Origin: Macrostomum lignano
Lineage: Eukaryota
Length of the DNA: 64,000 nt
Direction: 5' to 3'
Assembly: GCA_002269645.1 (NCBI GenBank)
Contig: NIVC01000181.1
Coordinates: 523,693-587,692, forward strand
Positions 36,101 to 42,100 of this stretch are shown here, in pieces (the stretch's first letter is position 1; each line of letters starts with the position of its first letter). The notes beneath the pieces are model-generated. The model was not told where the DNA came from. It saw only the letters and a program-made list of their open reading frames with translations, and made no database searches. Made by a program: the position numbers and the translations under genes.

Positions 36101-39100
36101 AGCATCCCAGCTGTCCCTTCTGCCCCATTCCTCTCTGAGAGCTCTTATGAGCGCAATTGGAGCGAAGTGGCCTATTCGTGCAGTCATAGAGAAGAATTTT
36201 TGAATATTTGCCTGCATTATGCACGCCTCGAGTAGCGGAACTGATGGTGAATAGGTGGCAGAATTAATGGAAATCTGCGCCTCTCCCACTGCTCACCTGT
36301 TGAGCTAATATGCGGGATATTTGGACAATAGGGGTGATTTCCCCATAAAACTTTGCCCCGGTCCTATTCTAAGCCAGAGACGTTCGCGAAAAGTGCGTCT
36401 GCCAGCACTGCCGGCTGCAGCGCTTCACTGACCTTCGCGAAGGGCTAGCACCCTGAAGTTTTCATCGGACAGCCCTGCAAGTTTTGGGTGAGCAATTGCC
36501 TGTCTAATATTGGCTGGACTGGCATTGTTAGTTGGGCATCAGTAGAACGCGAGTTGAAACACACGAATTTTCATAAGCAGCGCGAGTCTTACTAAGTGGA
36601 CTCAGTGACGAGTGCAGAGTCTCAAAGCCTGCAGGTAACGGTTGGTTCACTCAAGTTGTTACATTCTTTAATATCGGATAAAGATTTCGGATTTTTGGAC
36701 TTCGGGCAGCTCAAACCATGCCAACTGCTGACTCTTAGTGCAGCAACAAAGACTCCCCCGAACACTCGGCCGGCAACTGCTCACCCAGCCTGTTGAGTTT
36801 CGCCTCCAGACCGCCGCCTCCGCCGCCGCCGCCGCCGCCCCCGATGCCGCCACCACCGCCGCCACCGCCGTCGACTCCGCCAGCGCCGCCGGCGCCAGTC
36901 GCCGATCCCTTCAACATCGGGTTGACTCGCCTCGGATTCGAGCTCGGAGACTTTGGCGGGCCGCTGCCGTTGCCGCCTGGGCCGCCGGGGCCGCCGGGAG
37001 GCGCGGGAGCCACCACGCCACCGCCGCCGGGCTTCGGCCGGACGGCCTCCACGGGGAGAACTCGGCGCCGCTTCTTTGGCAGCTTGCTGCGTGCCTGCGT
37101 GTGCGAGTAGAACATCGAGAAGTTCGACACGATGACGGGCACCGGCAGGGCGATCGTCAGCACGCCAGTGAGTGCGCACAGGGCGCCGACGAGCATACCT
37201 GCGGGAGACGGTGGCGTGTAAGTCGTATGGTCAGCGTCTGGTCACTTCTATGGTCAGCGGCTGGTCACTTCTATGGTCAGCGGCTGGTCACTTCTATGGT
37301 CAGCGGCTGGTCACTTCTATGGTCAGCGGCTGGTCACTTCTATGGTCAGCGTCTGGTCACTTCTATGGTCAGCATCTGGTCACTTCTATGGTCAGCGTCT
37401 GGTCACTTCTATGGTCAGCGTCTGGTCACTTCTATGGTCAGCATCTGGTCACTCTATAGTCAGTAGTAATATACCATACAAAATTGCCAGCAAATCGTTC
37501 TCATAATTCAATCAATTTAACTCTTTATCAGTGTGAAACGGCTCCAACACTTCCAACACTTCCAACACTTCCAACACTTCCAACACTTCCAACACTTCCA
37601 ACACTTCCAACACTTCCAACACTTCAAACACTTCCAACACTTCCAACACTTCCAACACTTCCAACACTTCCAACACTTCCAACACTTCCAACACTTCCAA
37701 CACTTCCAACACTTCCAACACTTCCAACACTTCCAACACTTCCAACACTTCCAACACTTCCAACACTTCAAACACTTCAAACACTTCCAACACTTCCAAC
37801 ACTTCCAACACTTCCAACACTTCCAACACTTCCAACACTTCCAACACTTCCAACACTTCCAACACTTCCAACACTTCCAACACTTCCAACACTTCCAACA
37901 CTTCCAACACTTCAAACACGCTGCAACCCCAGGCCGCGCCGCAGGCGCCAAGGGTCTTTTTCTGTTACTAAAAATAGACAAAAATGACACATGTTACACA
38001 TATACAAAATCTGAATGAAATACAAATTGGAGACCCCGTAGAATAGGGTCTTTTTGATGTGGTTGGAACAGCAGCAAATTTTGTTAAAGACAATATGGGT
38101 CTTATAGGACAAGCGGGCTCTGCAGCAGGTTCTATAACAAACGCTGTAAAGGGCGGAATCGAAGCAGCGAGGGCAGCAGAAGAACTAAAGAAATTGAAAG
38201 AATTTAACGACACCCTCTGACAAATAAAAGCAATAAAAGATTTGAAACTAGCGCAGGAAGCAACCCAAGCCACACAACCAACAGAAACCCCCACGAAAAG
38301 CGCGCCAATAAGTAATAAAGATATTCAGGATTTTAATAAAATGTTAAACACAATTAAAGGTGGGAAAGGATTAAAGAAATTTTAACAATATAAAAATGGA
38401 CTCATAAACATAGTCACACAATGTTAAAAAGATTGGATCGCTTAGGCAAAAAACTTGACTACGATATCGATACATTTAAACTTGCTTCAAAATACGCACA
38501 AGAAGGAAGGCCAATATCCTTGAACCGTGGTAAAAATTATCGGCTAACAGATTTTGATGTGAAATTTTTATTGGAGACTCACACTAAAAAGGACGGTGGA
38601 TTACTACCCATTCTACCAATGTTAAAATCAACATAGATTATAATAAATTCTTTCTTCCGACGCGTTTCGGTCCAACAATGACCATCTTCAGGGTCTGGTG
38701 TATTTTTAACTCACACAACAACTTTATAAGTGAACAAATGTTAACTGTACAGTCCAAAGGGCATGTCATGGGCAGAATTTTCCAAAAAAATGTTAAGCAT
38801 AGATTGCACTAGTAAAGGCACTAGTCTGAACAATGTACTTGCAATCTATGCAAAACCAAAAAAAACCAAAGGAAACCGCGGAATAAATCGGATGAAAAAC
38901 CATTAGAAGAGTTTATTAGGGTTTATCGATTTGAACCAATGCAGAATGTCCTAGATTTTATTGAAACCCAACTTTCAAACGGATATAGTGTTGAAATTAC
39001 TAATGCGAGGGTACAATATTTTTATAACAACACCGGCGATGATCGCGAAGAGATTAATCAATACTTAGCAACATTTTATAATATAAGTCAGTTTCTAAGT

Positions 39101-42100
39101 CAGTATATTACTACTATAGTCAGCATCTGGTCACTTCTATGGTCAGCATCTGGTCACTTCTATGGTCAGCGTCTGATCACTTCTATGGTCAGCATCTGGT
39201 CACTTCTATGGTCAGCATCTGGTCACTTCTATGGTCAGCATTTGGTCACTCTATAGTCAGCATCTGGTCACTCTATAGTCAGCATCTGGTCACTTCTATG
39301 GTCAGCGTCTGGTCACTTCTATGGTCAGCGTCTGGTCACTTCTATGGTCAGCGTCTGATCACTTTTATGGTCAGCATCTGGTCACTTCTATAGTCAGCAT
39401 CTGGTCACTTCTATAGTCAGCATCTGGTCACTTCTATAGTCAGCATCTGGTCACTTCTATGGTCAGCATCTGGTCACTCGATAGTCAGCGTCTGGTCTCT
39501 GCTTTTTATCACCCAGTCAACGGGTGAGATGATGATGAGGCAGCATAAATCGAGTCAGGGCGAGGCGATGAGAAATGTCTTTTTGCACAGTCCCACTGGC
39601 CACCCCAGCAGGCGAGAGCAGCTGCAGCGCATTCCATAGTTTCGGGCTTGTATTTTCAGGAAGTAGAGGGCCCGAGTGCCGAGTTCCGCGCCTAGCAACC
39701 CGCTGTTTTATTTTTATCCTCCAGTCTCATGCAGCCGAGCAACTGACACCCAATGCCTGCCACTCAGACTCCTCAAGTGCGAACTGTGGGTGCTTGGGCC
39801 CTGCCCTGCCCCACCCCCTCCCTGTTGTGCGCGGGAGCTCAAAGCCGGAGCAAATTTTCGAAGCTAATAGTTGGCACCGTTTTCACAGAACAGAGAGAAA
39901 TTCGCAGGTACAGAAAGGTGGCTGAATGGAGAGGGGGAGGTGACGCCCGCTGAGTCTCCGGGAGGTGCTGCAACTCAAACACATGCAGCTTCCCTACCTG
40001 CGGTCCAGGCAGATGGGAGGCCCTCTGCAGCTTGCCTCACCTCTCCCCTCTTCATGCCTGCCTGTCCGCGTATGCACTCAGGAAATTTGATTCACTTCCT
40101 CCCTCCCGACGTCTCCCCTCATGCTCGCCCCAACCCGACCGCTTCCCTTCCAGTCCCAACTCGCGCTCCCTCACCCCTCCTCAGACCCCAGTTGGGAAAT
40201 CGAGTCCCCTACTCAACTTTGTCTGGCGCGCAGGGCCGGGCCGGGCCGGGGTGCCATGCCAGCCCCCGAATCGATCCGGGCTCCCGGCTTCGAGACAAAT
40301 CAATGACGGAGGTCGCTGCCGCAGCCCTGACTTGTCCTCAGATATTCGCTAACCCTCCCGACCCGGCCAGGACTTGGCTTGCTATGGGAGGGTGGCCTGG
40401 GGACTTCTACTGCTATAGCCTGACTGTTGACTGTTGCCTGGTGACAGACAGACAGACAGACAGACAGACAGACAGACAGACAGACAGACAGACAGACAGA
40501 CAGACAGACAGACAGACAGACAGACAGACAGACACTAAGACAGACAGACAGACAGACAGACAGACAGACAGACAGACAGACAGACAGACAGACAGACAGA
40601 CACTAAGACAGACAGACAGACAGACAGACAGACAGACAGACAGACAGACAGACAGACAGACAGACAGACAGACAGACAGACAGACAGACAGACAGACAGA
40701 CAGACAGACAGACAGACAGACAGACAGACAGACAGACAGACAGACAGACAGACAGACAGACAGACAGACAGACAGACAGACAGACAGACAGACAGACAGA
40801 CAGACAGACAGACAGACAGACAGACAGACAGACAGACAGACAGACAGACAGACAGACACTCACCCGCGTAGGTCTTGGGCACCATGTCGCCATAGCCAAC
40901 AGTAGTCATGGTGACGATGGCCCACCACAGTCCAATAGGGATCGAGTCGAAGGAGTTTTCTGGGTTGTACTGGATTCTCTCTGCATAGTAGATTAGCGCG
41001 GCGAACACTACGATGAACACAATCAGAAAGAACACCAGCAGCAGCAGCTCCTTGGCCGACGCTTTGAACGTGTGGATGAGAATCTTCAGGCCGGCGATGT
41101 GCCTGCAATGCGGTTGAGATTGCCAAGATTAGACAAGCTGAGGTGACACTGGGTGAGATTAGACAAGATGAGATGACACTGGATGAGATTAGACAAGTTG
41201 AGATGTCACTGGGTGAGACTAGACAAGATGAGATGACAGTGGCTGAGACTAGACAAGATGAAATGACACTGGGTGAGATTAGACAAGTTGAGATTACACT
41301 GACACTGGGTGAGACTAGACAAGCTGAGATGTCACTGGGTGAGATTAGACAAGATGAGATGACACTGGGTGAGATTAGACAAGATGAGATGACACTGGGT
41401 GAGATGAGACAGGATTGGATAGCAGTGGGTACTGGGTGAGATTAGACAAGATGAGATGACACTGGGTGAGATAAGACAGGATTGGATAGCAGTGGGTACT
41501 GGGTGAGATTAGACAAGATGAGATGACACTGGGTGAGATGAGACAGGATTGGATAGCAGTGGGTACTGGGTGAGATTAGACAAGATGAGATGACACTGGG
41601 TGAGATGAGACAGGATTAGGGAGCAGTGGGTACTGGGTGAGATTAGACAAGATGAGATGACACTGGGTGAGATAAGACAGAATTGGATAGCAGTGGGTAC
41701 TGGGTGAGATTAGACAAGATGAGATGACACTGGGTGAGATAAGACAAGATTGGATAGCAGTGGGTACTGGGTGAGATTAGACAAGATGAGATGACACTGG
41801 GTGAGATGAGACAGGATCAGAGAGCAGTGGGTACTGAGTGAGATTAGACAAGATGAGATGACACTGGGTGAGATGAGACAGAATTGGATAGCAGTGGGTA
41901 CTGGGTGAGATTAGACAAGATGAGATGACACTGGGTGAGATGAGACAGGATCAGAGAGCAGTGGGTACTGAGTGAGATTAGACAAGATGAGATGACACTG
42001 GGTGAGATGAGACAGGATTAGGGAGCAGTGGGTACTGGGTGAGATTAGACAAGATGAGATGACACTGGGTGAGATGAGACAGAATTGGATAGCAGTGGGT

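Follow-up and report, generated by a model that had tools for sequence, protein, structure and literature searches.

The best described relatives of the element reported here are the Mavericks, or Polintons, of vertebrates, which span 12.7-24.6 kb, carry eight core genes and most frequently end in 5'-(AGT)2//(ACT)2-3' with duplications of a 6-bp target site (TSDs), (AG)3//(CT)3 being also included in the definition (PMC8097293). Published terminal inverted repeats (TIRs) measure 46-1,447 bp in vertebrate Polintons (PMC8097293) and 100-1,500 bp in Polintons in general (PMC10748475). Non-autonomous Polintons have already been named, among them Polinton-1N1_DR (PMC9341505), Polinton-N1A_NV (PMC11296320) and, in an older view, Tlr1 (PMC5499653). 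The first and last of these, like the polB-less Polintons of Pieris, keep their ends without the core genes, and the Pieris elements are multi-copy, carry retroelement cargo and fall in a size class of at least 12 kb (bioRxiv 2025.02.07.637071). Within the passages covered of the literature on non-autonomous, mini or defective Polintons, with Repbase lying outside this coverage, we found no Polinton below 2 kb with both of its ends. In a 64,000-nt stretch of Macrostomum lignano DNA (contig NIVC01000181.1, positions 523,693 to 587,692 of the forward strand; hereafter the window) we describe such an element, a real, Polinton-derived and extremely shrunken copy with intact tips, which lies in an intron of a Shaw/Kv3 potassium channel gene.

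The insert (37462-39115, 1,654 bp) splits the 23-bp minisatellite of this intron, and a copy of ATAGTC flanks it on either side. When the insert and one ATAGTC were removed in silico, the array closed up in register across a normal 22-bp variant unit, the same in sequence as the one at 39256; the 6-bp duplication is therefore genuine and not an artefact of the repeat. The two tips form a perfect 13-bp inverted repeat that includes the Maverick end motif, and the chance of finding the 13-mer at exactly that junction is about 3e-8. This exact pair is unique in the window, where a third match with two mismatches is at chance level, and among the 44 AGTAGT and 205 ACTACT sites the insert tips are the sole pair lying 50 bp-30 kb apart with a flanking 6-bp duplication. 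The GC content of the insert is 37.8% (36.2% without an internal 9-mer array) vs 46.4% for the window. The sequence-only reading of this DNA had described an AT-rich insert with 13-bp TIRs splitting a 23-bp intronic array of a Shaw channel gene, had taken ATAGTC for a true 6-bp duplication and had listed AGT-type termini with a 6-bp TSD as Polinton features; the perfect repeat and the matches of the host exon in the PDB bear out the first of these, the in-register reading of the excised array bears out the second, and the third agrees with the published Maverick motif (PMC8097293).

One could suspect a chimeric join in a repeat-rich long-read assembly, since the window is dense in tandem repeats (81 rows from Tandem Repeats Finder, TRF) and a frameshift in the insert lies beside a homopolymer run. 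However, a mis-join would not yield a 6-bp duplication and perfect inverted ends in the register of the array, and the stops in the first open reading frame (ORF A) are in-frame codons, not errors of the indel type, so that we regard an assembly artefact as extremely improbable.

While the element shares the (AGT)2//(ACT)2 motif and the perfect 6-bp TSD with the vertebrate Mavericks, it differs from them in being 1.65 kb long and in having no intact gene (PMC8097293). Set against an autonomous Polinton, it falls short in length (1,654 bp vs 13-25 kb) and in its 13-bp TIR (Polinton range ~46-1,500 bp), and has neither an intact PolB nor the other core genes. Its structure is that of a non-autonomous element or miniature inverted-repeat transposable element (MITE): it is short, both ends and the TSD are intact, and it has no coding capacity. 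The 64 kb hold one copy of it, and a MITE-like family, as had been proposed, would be no more than a possibility. The published screen of vertebrate genomes would be blind to such a copy, because INT and pPOLB were required there to lie 4-40 kb apart (PMC8097293).

The origin of the element is told by its last frame, which had a single match among 7 candidate proteins, PAA48597.1 of M. lignano (88% identity over 83 aa, E 8e-41), itself a type-B polymerase (PF03175, above the Pfam cut-off). The fragment is 244 bp long, with residues 93-174 encoded by 38854-39094; 72 of 75 residues are identical over codons 100-174, while codons 93-97 are read in a second frame on account of a frameshift near 38869 that adjoins a homopolymer run. 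The three amino-acid differences in these 75 codons are all conservative (chance ~0.15). PAA48597.1 belongs to a cluster of 10 sequences (11 GenBank accessions) of up to 1,206 aa, all from M. lignano and on contigs of 21-302 kb, which are 96-100% identical to one another and identical over residues 93-174. Half of them (5 of 10) include the N-terminus, and all five match the element and nothing else in the window; two members reach the full length of 1,206 aa, and their polymerase motifs look intact. UniRef names one member OTU domain-containing, and Cys and His motifs lie at 235 and 323; a Pfam scan of the pPolB sequences gave no OTU match, and the full-length protein matched no PDB sequence. 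An OTU domain ahead of a PF03175 polymerase defines the alpha class of adintoviruses (PMC8502044), and the Polinton polymerase has the layout terminal protein-vOTU-exonuclease-palm (PMC11161782). The piece kept in the element precedes the OTU-like motif (residue 235) and would fall where this layout places the terminal-protein domain (PMC11161782). From the polymerase architecture together with the multi-copy presence on contigs of 21-302 kb, we infer that the M. lignano family encodes a Polinton polymerase of the alpha-adintovirus class. Judged by this comparison of sequences, the insert descends from a resident Macrostomum Polinton family (PAA48597.1, PAA57278.1, PAA58900.1 and relatives; BOX15_Mlig016029/030240), with which it shares the host lineage and from whose polymerase it differs in keeping 82 of 1,206 codons, frameshifted. 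The family is young and multi-copy, and its annotations read only hypothetical protein or DNA polymerase; a literature search for M. lignano Polintons yielded, by its listing, only Tc1/mariner work.

This match also bears on what had been proposed about the nature of the insert. The Polinton origin, argued earlier from the ends, is confirmed by the 88% identity to pPolB at E 8e-41, and the profile similarity of an internal frame to a Polinton protein, whose absence had been named as a ground for giving the idea up, was found; the description as a drastically reduced derivative and the loss of the integrase hold as well. What needs correcting is the statement that only scraps of structural-gene-like ORFs remain, since the sole firmly identified scrap is from the polymerase, a replication gene.

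The ends of the element are very unequal, in that the left subterminal sequence has no counterpart at the right end. From the end of polB it is 20 bp to the right tip. The right terminal repeat is separated from the polB homology by 7-8 bases, which are copied from the adjacent polB DNA, and because the homology stops that close to the repeat, the right 13 bp are not a natural right end. The 13-bp repeat is thus probably the stub of a longer end. The opposite could be argued, namely that the TIR is naturally 13 bp long, or that the insert is a small DNA transposon of another kind, into which pieces of Polinton and Penelope were captured in the manner of a Pack-MULE. The inside of the element is indeed a mosaic of at least three origins, and the terminal DNA of the parent lies outside the data. 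But a Polinton gene fragment is here bracketed by (AGT)2//(ACT)2 and a 6-bp TSD, the commonest signature of vertebrate Mavericks (PMC8097293), whereas Ginger elements, the other integrase-type transposons compared, have TGT ends and 4-5-bp TSDs (PMC2836005). Were the TIR short by nature, the element would be a fossil or a mini-copy all the same, and only the meaning of the 13 bp would change. We therefore consider capture or a naturally short TIR very improbable.

Table 1. Features of the insert and its surroundings, in positions of the window
Position	Strand	Feature	Remarks
37199..40863	-	Host intron, Shaw/Kv3-type potassium channel gene	Between pore exon and S6 exon
37226..37461		Left half of host 23-bp intronic minisatellite	~10 units
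37456..37461	+	Left copy of target site duplication	ATAGTC
37462..37474	+	Left terminus, 13-bp inverted repeat	Begins with Maverick (AGT)2 motif
37475..37542		Left subterminal sequence	68 bp, AT-rich
37543..37919		Tandem array of 9-bp units inside the insert	42 copies, 98% matches
37920..37983	+	GC-richer linker	64 bp; triloop with 5-bp stem at ~37936-37948; A-rich run ahead of ORF A ATG
37984..38385	+	ORF A	133-codon frame, ATG to TAA; in-frame stops at 38044 and 38218
38394..38624	+	ORF B	5' part of gene
38657..38693	-	Penelope-type minimal hammerhead motif	Inside a 120-bp foreign segment, 38625-38744
38745..38851		Filler	107 bp; ends in 12-bp inverted copy (38840-38851) of 38797-38808; abuts polB start
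38852..39095	+	Protein-primed PolB gene fragment	Codons 93-174 of 1,206
39096..39104	+	9-bp direct copy of 39084-39092	At polB/terminus junction
39103..39115	-	Right terminus, 13-bp inverted repeat	Ends in (ACT)2
39116..39121	+	Right copy of target site duplication
39116..39497		Right half of host minisatellite	~17 units

For the way in which the short form arose, two alternatives had been offered, that the element was already small at insertion or that it was deleted afterwards, and these remain the right two. To the second we give an even chance: the element would be an inert, internally deleted Polinton copy, one that inserted at full length and was shortened where it lay by break repair. 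On what is known of the family, a retrovirus-like Polinton integrase would have made the insertion and the duplication, and the full-length element, once integrated in the minisatellite, would have been cut down there by ~90%. This would have taken either a single complex repair of double-strand breaks or two or more in succession, concluded by templated end joining of the synthesis-dependent microhomology-mediated (SD-MMEJ) or polymerase theta type. The stretch from the terminus through the array and ORF A to the start of ORF B, the left 1.16 kb, would then be a contiguous left end; 37475-37542, by the same reasoning, would be the left end of the parent element. A first deletion would have joined ORF B by way of the Penelope scrap and the filler to polB codon 93, and a second one would have fused polB codon 174 with what is left of the right end, its last 13 bp. 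The most economical course would be a break at the tips, after which the sister chromatid was copied abortively, starting at both flanks and proceeding inward; this would keep the tips and spare the host array, and the stops and the frameshift would have accumulated without selection. That ORF A has two stops and polB a frameshift, and that a Penelope-type scrap lies between them, argues for time spent in a chromosome, and the unequal ends are unlike those of a refined MITE. As it stands, the element is unable to move by itself and is probably a dead relic, which would encode nothing functional and would be spliced out with the host intron.

Such an end would not be out of the ordinary. Among vertebrate Maverick loci 96% are degraded (PMC8097293), the Polinton copies of Mayetiola have a median length of 1,243 bp (PMC8504770), and Anolis is without non-autonomous Polinton copies (PMC3014272); decay is the usual fate of Polintons. 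If the present copy is a lone product of random decay, it is an ordinary fossil, and its main value lies in flagging a young Polinton family in Macrostomum.

The junctions hint at how the repair could have proceeded. At the left one, a 12-bp inverted copy of DNA located 43 bp upstream immediately precedes the polB homology, and at the right one the homology ends at a 9-bp direct copy whose source is 12 bp upstream and whose last two bases are the start of the right terminal repeat. A repeat of 12 bp was reached at 6 of 1500 shuffled positions and at none of 133 real control positions, and one of 9 bp at 75 of 1500 and 3 of 133, respectively. Inverted repeats, of the snap-back kind, and direct ones, of the loop-out kind, make up the two signature classes of SD-MMEJ, for which a repeat of at least 4 bp at the junction with its distal end within 30 bp is required (PMC5728401). 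Both polB junctions have repeats longer than this minimum, and the distal end lies at 12 bp for the right junction and at 55 bp for the left one, vs the 30-bp limit. The filler at 38797-38851 also folds into a strong DNA hairpin (z -3.6) and has an 8-bp direct repeat at 38806 and 38818; it may consist of several templated patches, or it may be a natural hairpin of the parent.

The Ds elements derived from Ac and the internally deleted P elements arise by abortive gap repair. The element resembles them in its kept tips, unequal ends, filler DNA and templated junctions, with the difference that theirs are cut-and-paste transposases known to excise.

Several points weigh against shrinkage in place. 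To our knowledge, it is not established that Polintons excise via a double-strand break. The loss amounts to about 90% of the element, yet no deletion entered the host DNA, and the right one halts 13 bp from the tip. The TSD, the terminal repeats and the register of the array are all perfect, which deletion blind to boundaries predicts poorly, and an element between direct repeats sits where single-strand annealing could erase it as a whole. The left-junction repeat reaches out to 55 bp, beyond the limit given above, and the right-junction repeat is by itself only at the ~5% level. Moreover, the assay that defined the SD-MMEJ signatures used plasmids, and since the signatures thus arise on extrachromosomal DNA too (PMC5728401), the junction repeats do not locate the repair in the chromosome. 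Finally, the conservative polB differences fit a sister subfamily or species as well as they fit neutral decay, so that the age of the element is not fixed, and the point mutations do not separate shrinkage in place from integration in trans.

Some of these points can be read in favor of the other alternative, which we put forward tentatively and at chances somewhat short of even. Here a defective mini-genome would have arisen beforehand, either at a different locus or as a free linear molecule, and a full-length Polinton would have supplied the integrase that inserted it at roughly the size it has now. Only molecules with both tips would be replicated by protein priming and integrated, the shorter ones faster, for which defective-interfering viral genomes offer an analogy; the 13 bp would be near the minimal cis signal, or would have been regenerated by copying of the left tip. 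Under such a scheme both tips are kept while the interior is lost, and a perfect TSD and perfect repeats can stand beside decayed coding scraps. Potential helpers are at hand in the pPolB family, with its two full-length members among 10 sequences. The polB-less Polintons of Pieris appear to stay mobile, but were drawn from variants of at least 12 kb (bioRxiv 2025.02.07.637071), and zebrafish has a family of the name Polinton-1N1_DR (PMC9341505). Against this account speaks, though weakly, that the window holds no second copy, and we know of no evidence that 13 bp would be enough for integrase or origin function. The tightly constrained sizes of intact elements (PMC8097293) speak against the packaging of a 1.65-kb genome, but not against its integration within the same nucleus.

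As for what the tips could provide, the 13 bp hold the (AGT)2 repeat, which has already been tied to jumping-back initiation (PMC8097293), and most of a 10-mer resembling an adenovirus site. Over its positions 5-14 the left tip agrees with ATAATATACC, the core origin of adenovirus, at 9 of 10 bases, and the right tip does so at 8 of 10; in HAdV-A31 this sequence occupies positions 9-18 and is the site of the pTP/polymerase (PMC2794291). A 9/10 match within 20 random bases of the same composition has a probability of ~0.0012, a figure calculated post hoc, and the literature listings for the 10-mer with adenovirus and for AGTAGT with Polinton contained no title on a ATAATATACC-like box at Polinton tips. 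A bolder version of the mini-genome account would be that the element is a mini-Polinton mobilised in trans, a defective-interfering form of a Polinton or adintovirus at ~1/10 of the normal size, the polymerase and integrase of the helper requiring no more than its 13-bp right tip, with (AGT)2 followed by a TAATATAC box, a homologue of the core origin of adenovirus, as the minimal signal; this we hold to be unlikely.

The choice matters because what is known of the exit, replication and re-integration of Polintons comes solely from inference on sequences, and no map exists of the cis requirements. Should the short form prove multi-copy, 13 bp would suffice for mobilisation in trans, revealing how little DNA Polintons need for moving and implying miniature parasites that are missed by screens for integrase and polymerase. 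If the mini-Polinton account is true, such copies would give a natural deletion map of the cis signals and would mean integration without long TIRs or packaging. If the copy is single, and other deleted copies keep their tips and templated junctions, breaks at the tips and hence real excision would be indicated.

The remaining interior of the element is poor in recognizable sequence. Outside the tandem arrays its longest stop-free frame is no more than 118 codons; the 6 plus-strand frames of the element gave no Pfam match to integrase, packaging ATPase, protease or major or minor capsid protein, and neither Pfam nor NCBIfam gave a match for the frame 38745-38903. The 9-mer array (377 bp), which the earlier description of the insert lacks, could come either from the end region of the parent or from later expansion. 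In the linker the GC triloop near 37940 folds no better than shuffled sequences, and an 11-bp direct repeat links 37951-37961 with 38045-38055, directly after the first stop of ORF A.

For ORF A, a word-indexed protein search (93 candidates) gave no match, neither half matched Pfam, and its comparison with one relative of ORF B was a local match only (E 8.9); its possible likeness to Polinton virion accessory proteins was confirmed by no library. ORF B resembles the N-termini of two of its three HMMER matches, unnamed proteins with lengths of 285 and 313 aa, at 43-45% identity over ~75 aa; both have a GG(F/I)LP motif in doubled form, together with G-x-G repeats. The frame is cut just after the first GG(F/I)LP motif, and the homology ends at 38624 and does not resume. 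We take GG(F/I)LP with G-x-G to be typical of pX-like virion core proteins or protease sites, a label that no search confirmed. The ORF B family had no relevant match, such as one to adenovirus pX or adintovirus PLA2X/GasderminX, in Pfam, NCBIfam, PDB or among folds, and the GG(F/I)LP motif was not found in the literature; a word-indexed search with ORF B (1 candidate) gave 0 matches, a model from a 3-row alignment (predicted local distance difference test, pLDDT, 73) matched no viral or PDB structure at E 0.001, none of 240 stretches of bacterial or archaeal genomes held a relative, and in the one file of the Starrett supplement neither the ORF B motifs nor Macrostomum were found. Candidates that were rejected include P0012, a 3,656-aa bacterial cadherin/RTX adhesin that scored as an ORF B relative spuriously, through 9 repeats, and the Atlas feature matches of ORF B to helix-turn-helix and transposase clusters, which were all at or below 0.87 and were dropped. 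A further frame, ORF C, had no usable Atlas match, and its match to DUF5093 was below the Pfam cut-off.

The segment between ORF B and the filler points to a Penelope-like element (PLE). A minimal hammerhead descriptor, drawn from PMC4209133 after the motif had already been noticed, has one match in the window and none in 5000 shuffles of the 1,196-nt unique part. The core boxes, an extra base after position 9, the G10.1-C11.1 pair, a palindromic helix III and the cleavage triplet are present. With the type I hammerheads of PLEs it shares the core boxes, the extra base between 9 and 10.1, the G10.1-C11.1 pair and the small palindromic helix III; its helix I has 2 bp as in the D. virilis variant, and its helix II 4 bp, where the usual helix I has 4-5 bp (PMC4209133). 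Single hammerhead motifs from truncated PLEs are common, and single minimal motifs are inactive in vitro (PMC4209133). A second hammerhead copy or an ORF for a PLE reverse transcriptase near the motif was not found in the window, an Rfam scan gave no hammerhead match, and the hammerhead fold is not the minimum-energy fold of its stretch. A nested Penelope insertion with the 8-bp target duplication AATGTTAA (38618, 38737) was rejected as unproven, in that the word occurs five times in the element and the ORF B homology is not resumed.

The genome of M. lignano is partly duplicated. The host intron is bounded by GT at 40863 and AG at 37199 on the minus strand. The best three PDB matches of the upstream exon are Kv3.1/Shaw-related channels (E 5e-23), with Kv1 next at 4e-21. 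The ORFs of the element are oriented opposite to the channel gene, and the element adds three AATAAA words to the sense strand of the host within the intron, at 38572, 38917 and 38962. We found no evidence for the use of these words, and no effect of the element on the channel gene is indicated.

Elsewhere in the window, exons of an SK channel gene lie at 7263-10302 on the minus strand (Pfam SK_channel, E 5e-30 for the frame 9490-10302), which places two potassium channel genes within 35 kb. A weak remnant of a DDE_3 (Tc1/IS630-like) transposase (1198-1608, minus strand; E 7e-4) and an exon for a CD20/MS4A-like membrane protein with a polyglutamine tract (29473-30324, plus strand) are both below the Pfam cut-off. 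A 244-bp inverted repeat pair at 59996-60239 and 60982-61208 (87% identity), with a 151-bp tandem duplication (60239-60520) between its arms, is possibly another unclassified repeat or a fold-back element. The introns and spacers of the window are rich in microsatellites and minisatellites of their own, making up the 81 TRF rows and including a perfect (TAC)198 at 33334-33926, and the 9-mer array of the element may stem from the same host process.

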